Virus record (IMG/VR): IMGVR_UViG_2531839481_000001
Coordinates: 1-8,874 of that record
Length of the DNA: 8,874 nt
Direction: 5' to 3' (one strand)
Origin: a virus
Taxonomy: Monodnaviria > Loebvirae > Hofneiviricota > Faserviricetes > Tubulavirales > Inoviridae
Shown here: positions 1 to 8,874 of the stretch, piece by piece
How the letters are laid out: every line of letters starts with the position of its first letter
Position numbering within the stretch: position 1 is the first letter of the stretch
Notes under the pieces: model-generated
Told to the model about the DNA's origin: nothing
What the model saw: the letters and a program-made list of their open reading frames with translations, nothing else
The model's database searches: none
Made by a program: the position numbers and the translations under genes

Positions 1-2
1 TT

Positions 3-34
3 GGTGCGCATAATGTCAACGCGTTATGTTGAAA
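3..34 (+). other. dif-like Xer recombination site (attL/attP1): exact dif XerC arm GGTGCGCATAA (3-13) + TGT, then 7 divergent bp and a degenerate XerD-like arm TTATGTTGAAA (24-34)
   Basis: E. coli dif is GGTGCGCATAA-TGTATA-TTATGTTAAAT (established). Window 3-16 matches the XerC arm plus the first 3 bp of the central region, then diverges where hybrid att sites of dif-integrating phages typically begin. Confidence 0.7.
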
Positions 35-100: not shown

Positions 101-1030
101 CTACTTTTTCGTATAACTCTCTTCGCATTTAGCCAAAAACAGCAGATTAGTAGCGGTTAAATGAAGGGTATAACTCGCTAAATACTCAGGAACTTTTGTT
201 ATTTCTGCCCCTTGTCCATGTCCACCTTCTTTATTTCGAATGGTTGGAATACCACTCTCAAGTAGAATTCTTATTGAAGAAAATTGATTCTGGAGGTATT
301 CAGGTACTAAATTATTTGCCAAACAACTGTTAATTAATTTTTTAGCTGTGTCAGTATCATTAAATTGCCAAGAATGTTTTTTATGTATGGCTTTCATTAG
401 ACTTTCAAAAGATTTGAGGCAATCATTTAAACATTCTTTATATCGCTGATGTCTATAATGCTCATGGGCGGATAAAAACTCATCGTTTGCTCCGTTATAA
501 CTCTTGTTCTTACCAAGAATCTGAAGCGTAGGCTTTACAACATCAGAATGAATGAATTGTGAGTCAACTTTAACCAACTCTCCTGACTCAAATTGATATC
601 CAAGACCTGCTTCTTTAAACCTGATATTAAGTTCTTCAATAGCATCATCAGGACTTTGCTTTACTGACCCTCTGAATTTCCACTCATTTGATCTTATATA
701 CCCGTCTATCAGTTTGAAACATATCTCAATGATATCCAAGCATTTTTCATGATCTCTCTCAGCTAGGAAATAGTCAAAAATTGCCCCGAAATTCGATTCA
801 GGATACTGTTTGAGAGAGAATACACCATATTCCTTACACAGCGTTTTATGAACGAGTCTGTAAAGCTTACTTGCTTCCGTTTCATAGTCACTATCTTCAC
901 CGATAGTATCTCTTACAATATGAACAACCTGAACACGAAATGCATTTGGTATATTCGTGTATTGGTAAACATCAGCTACTTCACCTCTTAATTTTTTTTG
1001 TCTTTTTGAAAATAATTCGAATATAGCCAA
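101..1030 (-). CDS. HEPN-like (Rx5H motif) abortive-infection-family candidate, AbiJ/Abi_C-like; phage cargo (moron) protein
   Basis: 309-aa ORF with no in-frame ATG until about residue 213; start is TTG at 1028-1030 preceded by GAGGA with 7-nt spacing. C-terminal RNKEGGHG fits the HEPN Rx4-6H signature. Markedly AT-rich compared with the phage backbone genes. Family assignment is from motif recognition only. Confidence 0.5.
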   Translation of the reverse strand: MAIFELFSKRQKKLRGEVADVYQYTNIPNAFRVQVVHIVRDTIGEDSDYETEASKLYRLVHKTLCKEYGVFSLKQYPESNFGAIFDYFLAERDHEKCLDIIEICFKLIDGYIRSNEWKFRGSVKQSPDDAIEELNIRFKEAGLGYQFESGELVKVDSQFIHSDVVKPTLQILGKNKSYNGANDEFLSAHEHYRHQRYKECLNDCLKSFESLMKAIHKKHSWQFNDTDTAKKLINSCLANNLVPEYLQNQFSSIRILLESGIPTIRNKEGGHGQGAEITKVPEYLASYTLHLTATNLLFLAKCEESYTKK

Positions 1031-1113: not shown

Positions 1114-1536
1114 TTACCAGTAATATGAGTTTCTTCTGTGCCACCAATAAAGAAGTCCGTATCCAATGATAAGAATTCCGAAAAACATCAACGACATTCC
1201 CCAGCCAGTTCCGTACCACGAAACCATATCATCGAAAACCAACCCACCCATTTCACGTACTCCGGCAGCTTCCTTAAGAATTGGTTTGAATACCGGAATC
1301 AGAAGGGCGATCGCCAGTGGAGCACCCCAGCGAACAAGACCTGTTTCCATTTTGATCCCGAAAAAGATCCCCGCACCGACAACAAGCAGCCAGACTATCA
1401 GGCCAGGCGCAGTTTCCAGTGCTGTTTGCCATTCAACATCGAAAGTTTTCATTAGCCAGGCAACAACTGCCAGACAGAAAGCAAATACGCCTACAACAAC
1501 CAGTTCAACGCCGCTTGTTTCGTTATTTCTACTCAT
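1114..1536 (-). CDS. Small integral membrane protein (about 4 predicted TM helices), unknown function; cargo partner of the HEPN-like protein
   Basis: 140-aa ORF with four long hydrophobic stretches (for example LVVVGVFAFCLAVVAWL, LIVWLLVVGAGIFFGI, GAPLAIALLIPVF, MSLMFFGILIIGYGLLYWW); ATG at 1534-1536 preceded by AAGGA with 8-nt spacing. The overlapping + strand ORFs are low-complexity P/S/T-rich antisense artefacts. Confidence 0.7.
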   Translation of the reverse strand: MSRNNETSGVELVVVGVFAFCLAVVAWLMKTFDVEWQTALETAPGLIVWLLVVGAGIFFGIKMETGLVRWGAPLAIALLIPVFKPILKEAAGVREMGGLVFDDMVSWYGTGWGMSLMFFGILIIGYGLLYWWHRRNSYYW

Positions 1537-1569: not shown

Positions 1570-1607
1570 ACAATAAAGAACGTGCAGTGTAGGTAATACT
1601 GCACGTT
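1570..1607 (-). terminator. Rho-independent terminator candidate downstream of the repressor gene (10-bp perfect stem AACGTGCAGT / ACTGCACGTT, 9-nt loop, T-rich tail on - strand)
   Basis: Arms 1579-1588 and 1598-1607 are exact reverse complements; on the - strand the stem is followed by TTCTTTATTGT (1570-1578 complement). Confidence 0.55.
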
Positions 1608-1625
1608 AGTCTCATTCCTGAGACT
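1608..1625. other. Second short hairpin (7-bp stem AGTCTCA / TGAGACT, loop TTCC) immediately adjacent to the terminator
   Basis: Exact reverse-complement arms at 1608-1614 and 1619-1625. Confidence 0.4.
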
Positions 1626-1635
1626 GCTAAACCCT

Positions 1636-2082
1636 TTAATCTTCGCCTGACACTACTTTTTTCATAAACATTTTCGTACTGTAAGTATATGAACTTAATG
1701 CAGAAACTTGCCTTGCGAGAGCCAGAATATCTTGTTTATCCAGTGTTCTGATGTTCCACACAATGAAATTGTGGGCGTTAGTGGTTTCTTCATCAGTGTA
1801 ACCGTCTGCGGAAGTGATTAACTTCCTTTCAGTAGCTTCTTCTTTAACATCAATAGCATAGCCATAAGCAAGGGTGTTCAAGTCTGCACCAGTAATTTTA
1901 GCTATCTGAATTATGTCACTGAATTTAGGTTCAGTTTTGCCGGACGCTATTCTGACCAGTGTGCTAACGCTAATACCGGTTTTTTCGGCCAGTTCTTCAT
2001 AAGTCGAGTGTTCCAGAATTACCTTTTTGATACGTTCTGCTCTCTGCTTGTCCGCCATATCTTCATGCTCATTGTTGCCCAT
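1636..2082 (-). CDS. XRE/Cro-C1-type helix-turn-helix transcriptional regulator; candidate phage repressor divergent from gII
   Basis: 148-aa ORF with a classic HTH segment (EELAEKTGISVSTLVRIASGKTEPKFSDIIQIAKITG); ATG at 2080-2082 with GGAG 8 nt upstream; divergent orientation to the replication gene as in CTX-phi rstR/rstA. Confidence 0.8.
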   Translation of the reverse strand: MGNNEHEDMADKQRAERIKKVILEHSTYEELAEKTGISVSTLVRIASGKTEPKFSDIIQIAKITGADLNTLAYGYAIDVKEEATERKLITSADGYTDEETTNAHNFIVWNIRTLDKQDILALARQVSALSSYTYSTKMFMKKVVSGED

Positions 2083-2127
2083 CTACTTGGCTCCATCTTA
2101 ACAGTGGTTTTTCAATAGTTAGATTTG

Positions 2128-2184
2128 ATGCTCATTTCTGACAATTTAAACATTGCAAATGTATTGACTGTCAGAACTGAGCAT
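2128..2184. promoter_or_regulatory. 57-bp imperfect palindrome centred at 2156 between divergent repressor and gII; candidate operator and/or plus-strand origin hairpin
   Basis: Outer arms ATGCTCATTTCTGACA (2128-2143) and TGTCAGAACTGAGCAT (2169-2184) are reverse complements at 15/16; nested inner palindrome ACATT-gca-AATGT (2150-2162) shares the same centre. Confidence 0.55.
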
Positions 2185-2192
2185 ATTACATT
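2164..2192 (+). promoter_or_regulatory. Candidate sigma70 promoter for gII: -35 TTGACT (2164-2169), 17-bp spacer, -10 TACATT (2187-2192)
   Basis: 5/6 match at -35 and 4/6 at -10 with optimal spacing, about 60 bp upstream of the gII start; -35 overlaps the right arm of the palindrome. Confidence 0.4.
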
Positions 2193-2253
2193 GTGACCAT
2201 TCAATTTGCTCATAAATGACTATTGACACATATTTTGATGGGTGTGGCTACTT

Positions 2254-3306
2254 ATGATCGACTGGTTTACTGGAATCCTGCCTTGCACGCACCAACCGTT
2301 ACCGGCTGGTAGTGTCGTCAGCGTTGATGCTGATGGTGCAGTGGAGTGGGAAACAGTAAAACGGTTGACTGTTCGCGGTTCGTACGAATCTACAATGAAA
2401 GTAAGATCAGTTGGATCCGATGGCGAAGGCCGGGCAACACATCTTTATATTGATGGTAATCCGTCAAAATTTCTTCAGGGACATTCGGTTATTGGTTCCG
2501 ACGATTTGCAAGGACTGGTATTGACAGCTTACGCGAGAATACTGGCATTACTTCATATTCCCCATGACCTTCCGTCCTATCGTCAGGTAATGACAGGGCA
2601 ATATAAGGTTTCCCGTGTTGATATTAATTACATGTATTCATTGTCAACATTGGAAAATGTGCGGGCATGGCTTTATGCCGCAGAGTTTAAAGCAAAAACT
2701 CGTCATGGTCGCGCCTGTGGCAAAGGGGGAACGGTCTATTTGGGAAAAAACTCCCGTCGTTGGAGCCTGAAATTTTACTCTAAATATGATGAGCATACAT
2801 CTGGAAAAAAAGGGCACCAGATAGCAGATGAATTTGTTAACGCTGGTTTACTGGATTGGTCAAAAGATAAATTACGTATTGAATTAACATTAAGAACAAC
2901 TGAATTAATTGATTTGAATCTTACGCTTGGTAAAAACTGGAATATTGAGACGCCTAATAAAGTATTCTCTGACTATGTAGGGAGAATAGAAATGAATCAA
3001 AACACTATATTAACTGATGAAAAGATAATTAATCTCCCAAGAAAAATACAGTCTACATATTTGTTATGGAAGCAGGGCGCAAATATGAAAGAAATGCTTC
3101 CAAAGCCAACATTTTACAGGCATCGTAAAGAATTACTGTCTTTTGGTATAGATATTAATTTTTATTGTGAAGCCCCTGATTCAAATAATGTTATTCCATT
3201 AGTAAGAACACTTGAGGCTAAACCAGCCAAAATTCCATCATGGGTTTATGAGAAAGGTTTAATTTTCGATTATAACCGTATTTCACATGCCAGTAGCTGG
3301 CATTAA
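2254..3306 (+). CDS. gII: Replication initiation protein pII (rolling-circle nickase, Ff gene II family)
   Basis: Recalled M13 pII begins MID, as here (MIDWF) at ATG 2254. Shared motifs include PSKFLQGHSVIGSDDL (M13 PAKVLQGHNVFGTTDL) and NVIPLVR (M13 NVVPLVR). The ORF track extends to an upstream GTG at 2242, so the start is ambiguous by 12 nt. Confidence 0.85.
   Translation: MIDWFTGILPCTHQPLPAGSVVSVDADGAVEWETVKRLTVRGSYESTMKVRSVGSDGEGRATHLYIDGNPSKFLQGHSVIGSDDLQGLVLTAYARILALLHIPHDLPSYRQVMTGQYKVSRVDINYMYSLSTLENVRAWLYAAEFKAKTRHGRACGKGGTVYLGKNSRRWSLKFYSKYDEHTSGKKGHQIADEFVNAGLLDWSKDKLRIELTLRTTELIDLNLTLGKNWNIETPNKVFSDYVGRIEMNQNTILTDEKIINLPRKIQSTYLLWKQGANMKEMLPKPTFYRHRKELLSFGIDINFYCEAPDSNNVIPLVRTLEAKPAKIPSWVYEKGLIFDYNRISHASSWH
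2992..3306 (+). CDS. gX: pX, in-frame internal restart within gII (C-terminal 104 aa)
   Basis: In-frame ATG at 2992 gives a product starting MNQNTILTDEK, positionally and sequence-wise like M13 pX (MNIYDD...), with the same C-terminus as pII. Confidence 0.6.
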   Translation: MNQNTILTDEKIINLPRKIQSTYLLWKQGANMKEMLPKPTFYRHRKELLSFGIDINFYCEAPDSNNVIPLVRTLEAKPAKIPSWVYEKGLIFDYNRISHASSWH

Positions 3307-3838: not shown

Positions 3839-4081
3839 ATGAAAGTTTTGTCTTTTGTTAAATCTAAAATTGCAGTAGCTTCAACAGCGCTTTTTGTTTC
3901 TGCGAGTTCTTTTGCGGCAGATGGGGCTACAGGCGGTACTGATTATGCAGGTCAGGCAATGGATGCATTACTGACTCAGGCAAATGATCTTATTGGTAAA
4001 GTATGGCCTGTCGTTGTTGCTGTGGTTGGTGCAGGCCTTGCCATTCGTATTTTTAAAAAATTCGCTTCCAAAGCAGTTTAA
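3839..4081 (+). CDS. gVIII: Major coat protein pVIII precursor
   Basis: 80-aa ORF with signal peptide ending SFA, acidic N-terminus, hydrophobic core and basic C-terminus [11 protein letters not shown]; the mature region resembles the recalled IKe-type coat (…WPVV…KKF.SKAV); GGAG RBS at 3827-3830. Confidence 0.9.
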
Positions 4082-4127: not shown

Positions 4128-5372
4128 ATGAAAAGGAAAATATTAATTATTTCCTCTATTCTTATTTCTTCTTTTTCATATGCTGATTCATGGGAAAGCA
4201 TTACTAAATCTACTTTTCAAAGCTCTGCATATGCTGAAAGTAAGCAAATAACCAACCAAGATGGCACTAAACAAACTGTTTATTATATTGATGCAGCGAT
4301 GCAGGCTTCTGCCTGTCAGGGGGCTAAAGACAGTGCTCAGGGTGTTTTTACTCAGGTTAAACCAACTTATGAGGGAGTATGGCCTAACTCTGAATTCCGT
4401 CTTGTGTTTTCTGACGCTTGTACTTACAGCGACTCTCCAGGCCAGAAAGATAAATACTGGACTTTAACCGCTTATATTATTGGTGATATTCAACGATCCA
4501 TTCCTGATGAAAAACCTTCCGAGCCTACGCCTGAAGAGATTTGTGAAGCTAAACCCCCCGAAGAAGGTGTATTCAATAATGTCTATTCTTATGACGGCGA
4601 TCGTTATATTTATTATAACGGTTGTGAATATGAGGCCACTGGCGTCATTGTTTGCCAGAGTGATGGCACTGTTTGTGCTGCGACATGGAAGCCTACCGGA
4701 ACTGTAGCCGACCCTTCAGATAAGCCTTCTTCTCCTGCTGGCGATGGCGGTGATACTGGAGGCGGGGATACGGGTGGTGGTGATACTGGAGGAGGTGATA
4801 CAGGCGGTGGTAACCCAAGTGGCGGTTCTGGCGGTGGTAATGGCTCAAGTATTACCAAAGGAGATATTCAGTCAGCTATCGAAGGTGCTTCACCTAAAAT
4901 TGCCAGTGAGATTCATGATAAGTTAACAGAAAAAGACACCTCATCTGATGATAAAAAGTCGGCTGATGAACAGGCTAAAAATAATTTAAATCGTCTTGGT
5001 GACTCTATAAATAACCTTACTCGCGGAGCCGGACGTTTTGCTGATCCTTCTGGAGGTGATTCTCGTTATGGGAAGGGGGATTCTGAGTTAGATAGCGCTT
5101 CCACTTTAGCTGAATCTGAATTAGGAATTGCAAAGGATTCTCATGGCGCGTTATGGGAGGCTTTTTTAAATAAAGGTGCTATGTTGCCCAATTTACCCAA
5201 TGGTAATGGTTGTTCTGATTTTATCATTTTTGCAGGGGAGGTTTACCAGATTGACATTGGTTGCGATAAATTATTAACCATTAAAAATGCGCTTTCTTGG
5301 GTTTTTTATTGTTTAACATTCTGGTATGTCTTTACGTCTTTAACTTCATTGCTTCGTAAAGGGGGGGAATAA
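4128..5372 (+). CDS. gIII: Adsorption/minor coat protein pIII
   Basis: Start at ATG 4128 gives a signal peptide [19 protein letters not shown]; Gly-rich linker; the C-terminal membrane anchor (…[22 protein letters not shown]…[17 protein letters not shown]) resembles the recalled M13 pIII C-terminus. The ORF-track start at 3984 is an upstream in-frame extension through gVIII and the terminator. Confidence 0.85.
4752..4811 (+). repeat. 4 x 15-bp imperfect tandem repeat encoding (DTGGG)x4 in the pIII inter-domain linker
   Basis: Units gatactggaggcggg, gatacgggtggtggt, gatactggaggaggt, gatacaggcggtggt in the gIII frame. Confidence 0.8.
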
Positions 5373-6815: not shown

Positions 6816-8081
6816 ATGCGTTTATTTTTCATTGCTATCTTATTCACTTATTCTTTTTGCGTTTCTGCTGAGACTGTTAATCTTAATAATTCATCCGTTC
6901 GCTCATTTGTCCAGTGGTATTCATCAAAAACTGGCAAGCCCGTTATTGTTAACCCTGATGTTAAAGGAGCCGTAACGGTATTTAATGCTGATGTTAATCC
7001 CACAAATATTGATAATTTCTTTAAATCTGTACTGAATGCTAACGGATTTGTCATGCTTTCCGGCAATCCTGCGGTAGTCTCTTTGCCGTCAAAATTACCA
7101 TCACAGATGGCGTCAGACCTTGATGATGCTGATATTCGGCCTTATGACTCTTTCCCGTCTGAGCCATCTTATCAGTCAGCGCCAGTGGTGTTTACTGTCA
7201 GAAATTTTAAGCTGACAAAAGTAAGATCGTCTGATGTTCAACAACTGGTTAAAATTTATCTGGATTCTAATGGCGGTGGTAATGTTGTGGATTATCCAGG
7301 CAATAACTCCCTGATTGTTTCCGCACCTGACGAGCTGCTTCCCGTCCTTTCCGATTTCATCAATTCAGTGGATGTTGCCCGCGATCAGGTTTTGATTCAG
7401 TCGCTGATGTTTGAAACCAGTCTGTCGGATGGTGTTGATTTGTCGTTTGCAGCCGGTTCTGCATCCGGGCATAAAGTAGCAGGGGGTTTTAATACTTCAG
7501 CGTTGGGTAGCGCGTTGTCGACTGCAGGCGGCTCTTTTGGCATTTTTGATGGTAATGTTCTGGCCGTATCCCTGCGTGCGGTGCAGAGTAACTCCCGGTC
7601 TAAGGTGATTTCAACGCCTCGGATTCTTACTCAGTCTGGTCAGACAGGCTATATTTCTGTTGGTAAAAATGTACCCTTTATCACGGGTAAAGTTACGGGT
7701 GAATCTGCCGGGGTAAATAATCCGTTTCAGACCATTGAGCGTCATGATGTTGGCGTATCTCTGAAGGTGACGCCTGTTGTTATGGGGAACGGCCAGCTTG
7801 TACTTACTATTGATACCCGCGCTGATTCCATCAGCAACGATGATCAGGCATCTGATATTATTACGAACCAACGTCAGATACAGACTACAGTTCAGATTAA
7901 GGATGGCCAGACGCTCTTACTCGGTGGGCTGATTGATTCATCATCCAGCAATGCTGACCGTTCTGTACCGTTTATCAGTAAAATTCCGGTGATTGGCTGG
8001 CTTTTCAGGAGTAAAGCTGACAGTAATGAGCAACGTATTATGTATGTCCTGCTGACCGCTCATATTATTCGCGCGCTTTGA
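6816..8081 (+). CDS. gIV: Outer-membrane secretin pIV
   Basis: Start at ATG 6816 (AGGAG at 6801-6805) gives a signal peptide MRLFFIAILFTYSFCVSA. Strong similarity to recalled M13 pIV (…SVGKNVPFITGKVTGESAGVNNPFQTIER… versus M13 …SVGQNVPFITGRVTGESANVNNPFQTIER…). The ORF-track start at 6723 is an in-frame extension overlapping gI. Confidence 0.95.
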   Translation: MRLFFIAILFTYSFCVSAETVNLNNSSVRSFVQWYSSKTGKPVIVNPDVKGAVTVFNADVNPTNIDNFFKSVLNANGFVMLSGNPAVVSLPSKLPSQMASDLDDADIRPYDSFPSEPSYQSAPVVFTVRNFKLTKVRSSDVQQLVKIYLDSNGGGNVVDYPGNNSLIVSAPDELLPVLSDFINSVDVARDQVLIQSLMFETSLSDGVDLSFAAGSASGHKVAGGFNTSALGSALSTAGGSFGIFDGNVLAVSLRAVQSNSRSKVISTPRILTQSGQTGYISVGKNVPFITGKVTGESAGVNNPFQTIERHDVGVSLKVTPVVMGNGQLVLTIDTRADSISNDDQASDIITNQRQIQTTVQIKDGQTLLLGGLIDSSSSNADRSVPFISKIPVIGWLFRSKADSNEQRIMYVLLTAHIIRAL

Positions 8082-8082
8082 T

Positions 8083-8120
8083 GGGGCCGTGGCGGGTGCG
8101 TTAAGCCCCGGTACGGCCCC
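8083..8120 (+). other. GC-rich extended stem-loop immediately after the gIV stop; candidate gene-IV terminator / packaging-signal-type hairpin of the intergenic region
   Basis: GGGGCCGT (8083-8090) pairs with ACGGCCCC (8113-8120); inner CGGG/CCCG adds a further 4 bp; no U-tract follows, so classification as a pure intrinsic terminator is uncertain. Confidence 0.45.
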
Positions 8121-8230
8121 AGCAAGAGCCGGATTTTACGTCTCACCACGGAGCCTCTATATGGCCTTAAAACTGACAGGATATGAACAGAAAGACATCT
8201 TCTAGGTGATTCAATTACTTAGAGGTTTTT

Positions 8231-8479
8231 ATGTCTGTAAAAAGCAGGGTACGCGACCGCCTTCCCAGTGGTCATCTGAAGTCTTATCGACGTGTTGGTT
8301 CACACTTTACCAGTTGTTCCAGATGGTTTGATAAATCGCCGTCCTGGTATCGTAATATGATGTTGACCCGACCGGAACGCCGTGAAGTCAGAAAGCTTCT
8401 TAATCAGGTCTTGCATGGTCGTGATGCTGACGGTATAGCATTTCCTGTCAGTAACAAGCCGTTTGCATGGTGGTGGTGA
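8231..8479 (+). CDS. Hypothetical small basic Arg/Trp-rich protein (82 aa), unknown function
   Basis: ATG at 8231 preceded by AGAGG with 5-nt spacing; no similarity to Ff proteins that I recognise; lies in the region that is non-coding intergenic DNA in Ff phages. Confidence 0.35.
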   Translation: MSVKSRVRDRLPSGHLKSYRRVGSHFTSCSRWFDKSPSWYRNMMLTRPERREVRKLLNQVLHGRDADGIAFPVSNKPFAWWW

Positions 8480-8858
8480 ACTTTTTAGCCGCTAAAATTT
8501 AATACTTACGAAGTTATCGTAAACGCCGGTCAGTGACAAAACTCGTTTTGTTGCTGTCCGGGGTTGGCCAAGCCGTACAGTTTTCATTTTGAGTGTTATG
8601 GCTGATTCGGCGCGGCAGTGTTCATCTTGTCTGGAATTGGTGTCTTTAGCGCTGGGGAAGTTTTCATGTATCAGGTACAGATTTACCAACTGCAACTGGA
8701 TGAACAGGCCTGATTGGTGAGGTCAGGCCGTTCACTTACTGCTGACAGGCATTTGATTCTGATTCGTTTGGAGAAACGGATAATTTTGAATCATTGTCGA
8801 TAGTAACCAGTTGACGGCCAGTGTCAACGATTCCAGCCAGATTCCTTCTGATCCCATA

Positions 8859-8874
8859 TTGGTGCGCATAATGT
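8859..8874 (+). other. Second copy of the dif XerC arm (TTGGTGCGCATAATGT), truncated by the window edge; attR / chromosomal dif candidate
   Basis: Identical to positions 1-16; contains GGTGCGCATAA + TGT of E. coli dif. Confidence 0.7.

Follow-up and report, generated by a model that had tools for sequence, protein, structure and literature searches.

An operator-like palindrome and a candidate plus-strand origin at opposite ends of the repressor gene in a dif-flanked Escherichia coli inovirus prophage

The stretch of DNA considered here, referred to below as the window, comprises the 8,874 nucleotides of IMG/VR record IMGVR_UViG_2531839481_000001 and is a dif-flanked inovirus prophage of Escherichia coli of the UPphi/CUS-1/Ypfphi type. 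Positions 2083-2253 of the window lie between the divergent gene for a helix-turn-helix (HTH) repressor and gene II (gII), the replication gene encoding the rolling-circle initiator pII, and hold a 57-bp palindrome preceded by a short motif, TCTTAACAGTGG, that an initial annotation had likened to the nick site of the Ff phages. The features of this region and its flanking genes are as follows, class A being the immunity class that carries the present repressor:

1636-2082, minus strand: class-A repressor gene, 148 amino acids (aa), HTH_3/XRE family, ATG at 2082
2096-2107, plus strand: TCTTAACAGTGG, the "nick motif" of the initial annotation, seen only in class-A immunity regions
2115-2144, minus strand: weak candidate repressor promoter, TTGTCA (2144-2139), 18-bp spacer, AACTAT (2120-2115), 8 of 12 consensus positions
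2128-2184, unstranded: 57-bp palindrome, proposed class-A operator pair, spanning the back-to-back -35 boxes
2128-2143, plus strand: left arm of the palindrome, ATGCTCATTTCTGACA, overlapping the -35 box and spacer of the leftward promoter
2164-2192, plus strand: candidate gII promoter, TTGACT (2164-2169), 17-bp spacer, TACATT (2187-2192), 9 of 12 consensus positions
2169-2184, minus strand: right arm, TGTCAGAACTGAGCAT (ATGCTCAGTTCTGACA on the minus strand), filling the 17-bp gII promoter spacer
2207-2221, plus strand: third, degenerate arm-like copy, TGCTCATAAATGACT, just before TTGACA at 2223-2228
2254-3306, plus strand: gII, rolling-circle initiator with Phage_CRI and G2P_X_C domains, start ATG at 2254

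The start of gII is placed at ATG 2254 because the first four residues of its product (M1-I2-D3-W4) are invariant among relatives. The repressor gene has a GGAG Shine-Dalgarno sequence at 2091-2094, and TCTTAACAGTGG, which itself contains a -35-like TTAACA, falls between this GGAG and the predicted -10 box.

The palindrome is as the initial annotation described it, with outer arms that agree at 15 of 16 positions and a nested ACATT-gca-AATGT at 2150-2162. It is the longest inverted repeat of the window, and a window scan with the arm pattern ATGCTCANNTCTGACA found it without mismatch at the two palindrome arms only. As single-stranded DNA the palindrome folds with z = -4.4, one of 200 shuffles being equally good. 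The motif TCTTAACAGTGG is also present and on the plus strand, one base away from the 2097-2108 at which it had been placed. In the reading put forward for the two together, TCTTAACAGTGG would be the nick site of pII and the palindrome a hairpin bound by pII, so that 2094-2184 would combine origin, promoters and operator in one element; what speaks for it is a gapped match of 11 of 13 positions to the M13 core, located before gII on its strand and followed 20 bp later by a palindrome. The nick core of M13, TCTTTAATAGTGG, was taken from the M13 record and compared with the window and with 200 dinucleotide shuffles of it. Alignment of TCTTAACAGTGG needs one gap, and matches of this quality (edit distance at most 2) number two in the window against a mean of 1.0 per shuffled window, with at least one in 126 of the 200 shuffled windows, so that the likeness is at chance level. 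An ungapped search allowing up to three mismatches was also tried and discarded, giving five window matches against 3.4 expected and none in an intergenic hairpin.

The nick cores of M13 (GTTCTTT^AATAGTGG) and IKe (TGTTT^AATAGTGG) lie in hairpin loops, whereas TCTTAACAGTGG does not in the predicted fold; around 2093-2107 there is only marginal 3+2-bp pairing, which is missing from the centroid structure. No initiator-binding inverted repeat directly abuts TCTTAACAGTGG, and variation of the region within class A is greatest between motif and palindrome, at 2113-2127. The pII of the prophage, furthermore, shares only ~24-29% identity with its IKe counterpart in local alignment segments, and an Ff-type nick sequence is therefore not expected. 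We conclude that TCTTAACAGTGG most probably resembles the Ff nick core by chance.

The inheritance of these elements was followed across ~40 related loci in which pII is 85-100% identical. The DNA between gII and an upstream hairpin, GTGCAGT-GT[A/T]GGTAAT-ACTGCAC, occurs there in at least three unrelated versions: in class A, with the present repressor, 672 bp separate the hairpin from the gII ATG; class B has a different repressor and the hairpin at 663 bp, and class C a reverse open reading frame (ORF) of ~70 aa and the hairpin at 395 bp. Both TCTTAACAGTGG and the palindrome arms are confined to class A (-672), within which the palindrome is conserved. They are absent from classes B, C and D, from loci with another repressor though pII is 85-97% identical, and from all distant relatives examined. 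The repeat set is instead specific to the repressor allele, with arms ATGCTCA..TCTGACA in class A, inverted repeats of the GTCACAAA type in the class B intergenic region, three TGAACTCA direct repeats in class C and GGACAAATATGTCC palindromes in locus L028. The hairpin, by contrast, is found in every intact locus with enough upstream DNA, the exception being a degraded remnant in Photorhabdus tasmaniensis (L012, ~3855-3875). There the left arm AACGTGCAGT is fused straight to the class-D intergenic region TATTGACAAC with the repressor gene deleted, at a junction that does not coincide with the GGTA site. Since the motif and the palindrome follow the repressor allele and the hairpin follows pII, the former are assigned to an immunity module and the latter to a replication module. 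Alignment with the M13 and IKe origins and with related prophages, as the initial annotation had suggested, thus yields a chance-level match in an element that is not inherited with pII; with a better candidate at 1579-1625 that follows gII and carries footprints of breakage and rejoining, an origin at 2094-2184 has become very improbable.

The pII-associated hairpin lies ~30 bp past the repressor stop codon, where it reads CGTGCAGT-GTAGGTAAT-ACTGCACG, and is the first half of a bipartite element:

1579-1607, plus strand: hairpin 1, stem AACGTGCAGT (1579-1588) and ACTGCACGTT (1598-1607), loop GTAGGTAAT (1589-1597), fold z = -7.6
1608-1625, plus strand: hairpin 2, AGTCTCA-ttcc-TGAGACT, replaced by other palindromes at the equivalent position in relatives

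In all immunity classes seen, the element is on the gII strand and upstream of gII. A profile-based search added relatives with 39-59% pII identity, including phage I2-2, and most of these keep the bipartite element 330-570 bp upstream of gII, down to ~40% pII identity. The stem of hairpin 1 differs in distant relatives yet stays complementary (GTCGGGT/ACCCGAC vs GTGCAGT/ACTGCAC; for example AAAGTCGGGT...ACCCGACTTT), the loop core GGT(A/G)AT-AC is kept, and a second short palindrome (GTCTCA..TGAGAC, GTACCA..TGGTAC or TCCCA..TGGGA) follows directly after hairpin 1. Helix 1 remains 96% paired across 25 aligned sequences, 4 of the 10 pairs having compensatory substitutions, values that neither shuffles nor slid registers approached. 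Two observations qualify this evidence: the stem covariation comes from about two clades, that is, a few events, and the type of hairpin 2 (GTCTCA vs GTACCA) tracks the adjacent immunity gene and not the pII clade, L033 having a class-C-like pII together with GTCTCA. The latter pattern led to the rejection of hairpin 2 as a determinant of pII specificity; its probable role as a pII-binding inverted repeat is an analogy with hairpin E of Ff.

The initial annotation had named 8082-8858 as an alternative location for the origin. When the intergenic regions of I2-2, IKe and M13 and the plasmid cassettes described below were compared with the window by BLAST, only 1578-1618 matched, and 8082-8858, which shares nothing with these origin regions, was rejected. 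In I2-2, no intact plus-origin candidate was found besides the UPphi-type hairpin. Its record (L001) holds an IKe-type plus-origin remnant at 2535-2585, of which only the right half (2553-2580) with hairpin ACTCTTGTTGCAAAATCGCAACG is left, without the nick hairpin, and Ff-like minus-origin fragments at 2400-2450, upstream of the UPphi-type hairpin; these remnants fit a swapped replication module. A viral contig, IMGVR_UViG_2565956730_000001 (L045/L090), begins at position 1 with exactly GTAATACTGCAC, within the origin loop, and this end may be genuine or may reflect a broken assembly at the hairpin.

The relatives also contain three natural types of rearrangement junction (numbered J1 to J3 here) that break inside the loop GGTA, each with a different partner site. 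Two of the partner sites lie in gII and have the following counterparts in the window:

2356-2359, plus strand: GTAA pseudo-nick site inside gII, partner of J1
2377-2379, plus strand: GGT pseudo-site inside gII, used by J3 (E. coli LSN03-016011/A)

In J1, gII ...ACAGTAA is joined to TACTGCAC; the truncated gII, ending ...GGGAAACAGTAA, runs on as TACTGCACG into a second copy of repressor and gII. This junction occurs in the class-B locus L023 and independently in the class-A locus L141, a CUS-1-type prophage in a complete E. coli chromosome. In J2, from Klebsiella (L005), a CUS-1-type gIV ...CCCGTA is joined to ATACTGCAC (...AAAGTCCCGTA to ATACTGCACG), the intact partner reading ...CCCGTATATGC. 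In J3, from L140, gII ...CGCGGT is joined to AATACTGCAC (...CGTTCGCGGT to AATACTGCACG); the J1 partner site is mutated to CTA in this locus, and the later gII site is used instead. Each junction creates a tandem partial duplication that begins in the loop. The rearranged stretches (L023, 985-2496; L141, ~2448-2560; L140, ~2448-2585; L005, ~4660-4710) are partial tandem duplications or deletions.

The junctions are indirect evidence of site-specific breakage and rejoining and look like products of false termination by the rolling-circle initiator pII at GT-containing pseudo-sites. Their microhomologies (GTAA, GGT and GTA) overlap so as to limit the crossover to G1592-A1595, an interval compatible with a G^T nick as in CTXphi or a T^A nick as in Ff. 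In the mechanism we infer, a pII nick within G1592-A1595 of the loop GTAGGTAAT would prime rolling-circle synthesis, and pII would afterwards rejoin the strand at this site, the exact phosphodiester bond being one of those in this interval. A reservation attaches to the microhomology itself, which at 3-4 nt makes replication slippage near the hairpin a formal possibility.

A 37-bp core of the element, comprising hairpin 1 and TT[A/T]GTCTCA (1581-1617 of the window), is also present in 44 plasmid records. Most of these plasmids are 1.4-2.4 kb long and non-mobilizable, come from E. coli, Salmonella, Klebsiella and others, and encode either Rep_1 proteins or a different HUH Rep. An Ff-like minus origin and an I2-2-like packaging hairpin accompany the core in the plasmid cassette, and in ColpVC plasmids a complete IKe-type plus origin, ggtccactctgtttaatagtggactcttgttgcgatttgcaacgg, stands 9 nt before the core. 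Examples of the cassette are L055 (500-960), L056, L057, L053, L054 and L004 (NZ_CP041120, NZ_CP060944, NZ_CP070189, NZ_CP101268, NZ_CP023986, pIAL7254_2). That hairpin 1 might be the double-strand origin (dso) of the plasmids themselves was considered and found unlikely, as plasmids with two different Reps have another putative origin in common and their Rep families differ from pII.

The occurrence of the core beside unrelated Reps also counts against an origin specific to pII, because an element recognized by the host, for example a single-strand origin, would give the identical pattern. At 1579-1625 there would then be either a minus-strand (single-strand) origin or a bidirectional terminator where the repressor gene ends, and the plus origin would lie elsewhere. 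The terminator version can point to the A-run and T-run that flank the stem in distant relatives, as in bidirectional terminators, and to the annotators of IKe, who flagged its origin hairpins as potential terminators in the IKe record. The plasmids have no repressor gene beside the hairpin, however, which removes the simple terminator, and a terminator does not need the loop core that is conserved down to ~40% pII identity. As for a minus-strand origin, the plasmids already have an Ff-like one as well as a separate shared putative dso, GGCGGTACTCCAAAAACACATCTTGTCC; the ColpVC element stands 9 nt after the IKe-type plus origin, where a second plus origin would be expected; and I2-2 has its own, separate Ff-like minus-origin remnants and, as noted, a single intact candidate for the plus origin. 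The three junction types inside the loop also speak against both versions. A host-recognized element at 1579-1625 is accordingly judged quite unlikely, and the pII origin is preferred.

On that preferred assignment, the double hairpin may be the pII origin of a large, uncharacterized family of inovirus replication modules, including those of UPphi, CUS-1/Ypfphi, I2-2 and many environmental relatives, from which tiny plasmids would have captured the core, along with a packaging-type hairpin and an Ff-like minus origin, and would hitch-hike on these phages as natural phagemids. This extension is tentative, and we hold it somewhat less likely to be right than wrong. The inovirus satellite pDolos, itself a rolling-circle plasmid (bioRxiv 10.1101/2023.11.28.569023), sets a precedent. 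Like the plasmids carrying packaging-, minus-origin- and plus-origin-like sequences here, pDolos is an autonomous rolling-circle plasmid, and it is spread by a helper inovirus; it differs from the enterobacterial plasmids in host and in sequence.

With the origin placed elsewhere, 2083-2253 can be considered as a regulatory region. The best promoter matches in both directions, obtained by consensus matching only, overlap the palindrome. Two divergent sigma-70 promoters would have their -35 boxes back to back within the palindrome, and each 16-bp arm would serve as an operator for the adjacent 148-aa HTH repressor, positioned over the -35 box or the spacer of one promoter. Repressor bound to the arms would switch off gII and all downstream genes and would autoregulate its own synthesis, and the degenerate third copy at 2207-2221 may add cooperativity. 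If the weak leftward prediction holds, transcription would start near 2108 and the complement of TCTTAACAGTGG would be part of the repressor leader. The initial annotation had likewise placed the gII -35 element, the repressor leader and an operator in this DNA, and this portion of its proposal, unlike the origin, fits the promoter matches, the positions of the arms and the class-specific repeats, at the level of prediction.

The repressor aligns with RstR of CTXphi (26% identity over the HTH region); a PDB sequence search returned a generic HTH protein as its only match. Because of this alignment, and because the palindrome is kept in class A while other classes have repeats of their own, the arms are read as class-A operators. 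The resemblance to CTXphi ig-2 extends to the arrangement, in which a divergent HTH_3 repressor and a replication gene flank a short intergenic region that varies by immunity type; the differences are another operator sequence, a larger repressor (148 vs 112 aa) and the lack of a visible LexA site here. Several points weigh against an operator of this kind. The leftward promoter is weak, with its 8 of 12 consensus positions, and scores below the threshold of the first promoter scan. With neither arm palindromic by itself and 41 bp between the arm centres, two dimers or a tetramer would be needed for binding. The RstR tetramer reportedly protects unusually long operators of ~50 bp (work of Kimsey and Waldor), which would suit a 57-bp palindrome with this spacing of arm centres. 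The accessible literature on this phage group yielded no experimental nicking, footprint or transcript data.

Alternatively, the palindrome could be bound mainly by a host factor (a RovA/SlyA-type regulator, H-NS, IHF or LexA) in place of the phage repressor, or act as a cruciform. The region is AT-rich, and in Yersinia RovA has been reported at the putative promoter region of the gII homologue YPO2274 of Ypfphi (PMC4266046). Against this, the repeat set switches with the repressor allele while the host range is unchanged, and inspection of 2083-2253 by eye, no formal scan having been made, revealed no LexA box (CTGT-N8-ACAG). A host factor or cruciform in place of the repressor is thus unlikely; host factors may well act in addition to it. 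Repressor binding and promoter activity at 2083-2253 are predicted from the DNA sequence, and the promoter and operator assignment is plausible and ordinary for a temperate inovirus. Taken as a whole, 2083-2253 probably serves a temperate, dif-integrated inovirus as its immunity region, in the manner of ig-2 of CTXphi, and the plus-strand origin probably lies at 1579-1625 instead.

This placement of the origin also has its counterpart in CTXphi: a hairpin in Ig-1, beside the 3' end of the divergent rstR, is cut by RstA at G^T of its apical loop (PMC4439123; PMC8265649). In both phages the origin is outside the region between repressor and replication genes, at the 3' end of the divergent repressor gene, and has its nick, or candidate nick, in the loop of a GC-rich hairpin. 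In CTXphi the hairpin sequence is CCCCCGT-CTAGTATT-ACGGGGG, with a loop TAG^TAT that resembles TAGG^TAAT in the present element. RstA, however, belongs to Rep_trans and shows no similarity to the present pII by BLAST, and the CTXphi origin spans 167 bp with several hairpins and needs HU (PMC4439123), compared with a conserved core of ~47 bp here. In the M13 and IKe origins, as given in their records, a second inverted repeat likewise comes straight after the nick hairpin on the viral strand; T-AAT-A stands at the boundary of loop and stem in all of them, and their initiator belongs to the same Pfam family, Phage_CRI. Unlike in Ff and IKe, the element of the prophage stands before a reverse-oriented repressor gene and not in the gIV-gII intergenic region, and it matches the M13 core at 9 of 13 positions ungapped. 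No origin, operators or analysis of the repressor for I2-2, CUS-1, Ypfphi or UPphi were found in accessible papers, and neither the UPphi paper (PMC7307601) nor the Ypfphi review (PMC4266046) describes an origin or operator.

The remaining features of the window concern the borders and gene content of the prophage. A 16-bp direct repeat, TTGGTGCGCATAATGT, bounds the window on both sides:

1-16, plus strand: left copy of the direct repeat TTGGTGCGCATAATGT, prophage end
8859-8874, plus strand: right copy of the dif-like repeat
8078-8125, plus strand: GC-rich hairpin directly after gene IV, at a place equivalent to that of the annotated morphogenetic signal of I2-2

The repeat resembles the XerC-side arm of E. 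coli dif and is for this reason considered to mark the prophage end. The UPphi paper (PMC7307601) also underlies its identification as dif. An inverted repeat with 24-bp arms is found at 22-81, just inward of the left copy. Between the repeats is a complete filamentous-phage gene set (gII, gV, gVIII, gIII, gVI, gI and gIV, the last ending at 8081), and on the left are three reverse-oriented genes, encoding an AbiJ-like protein, a 140-aa membrane protein and the 148-aa HTH_3 repressor. The structural genes resemble those of I2-2 and IKe and are nearest to I2-2, while the gII-gV module and the repressor are common to CUS-1/Ypfphi-type prophages (pII 96% identical), the pII of I2-2 being more distant at 59%. 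This mosaic gene content agrees with the published "UPphi" group (PMC7307601). Rfam and tRNA scans of the window gave no matches.

The product of the AbiJ-like gene (101-1030, minus strand) has 309 aa and combines an AbiJ_NTD4 with a DUF7014 domain; in other annotations it appears as an abortive infection or STM4504/CBY_0614 family protein. Copies ~72% identical are found on many E. coli plasmids, and the gene, which adjoins attL, is likely anti-phage cargo. The hydrophobic 140-aa membrane protein (1114-1536, minus strand) is encoded between the candidate origin and the AbiJ-like gene, has no Pfam match and is conserved among relatives, those of the CUS-1 type included. In the stretch from gIV to the right end, a basic 82-aa ORF (8231-8479, plus strand), also without a Pfam match, lies where a 249-nt hypothetical ORF is annotated at the equivalent post-gIV place in the E. 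coli A20 prophage (L002) and in CUS-1-type prophages (L003). The A20 prophage is the closest relative from a complete genome (98.8% identity) and has the IS21-family element ISEc62 inserted in gIII (L002, 6343-8309). The hairpin at 8078-8125 is by its position a probable packaging (morphogenetic) signal. A second strong hairpin after gIV, at 8522-8565 (CCGGTCAGTGACAAAAC..GTTTTGTTGCTGTCCGG), could be a minus-strand origin, and the hairpins of 8082-8858 are read as a packaging signal and possibly a minus origin or attP; neither hairpin resembles the intergenic regions of Ff, IKe or I2-2 in sequence. Several predicted proteins of Klebsiella and E. coli (P0009, P0010, P0031, P0032, P0035 and P0039) fuse the pII N-terminal domain to a secretin domain, and probably arise by internal gII-gIV deletions in degraded prophages.

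An origin fused to an operator would imply that the repressor gates replication at the level of the DNA itself, and the evidence does not support this. The corrected map shares the layout of CTXphi: the proposed origin follows the 3' end of the repressor gene, and the space between that gene and gII holds the proposed operators and divergent promoters. It also explains the partial tandem duplications found in complete genomes, which would be products of false termination by pII. For the prophages of the UPphi/CUS-1/Ypfphi type, which are widespread in E. coli, Klebsiella, Salmonella and Yersinia pestis, the map supplies concrete, testable sites, among them a candidate origin of ~47 bp with a 3-nt nick interval and a candidate operator of 57 bp, and it flags a group of very small cryptic plasmids as possible phage-borne hitch-hikers.

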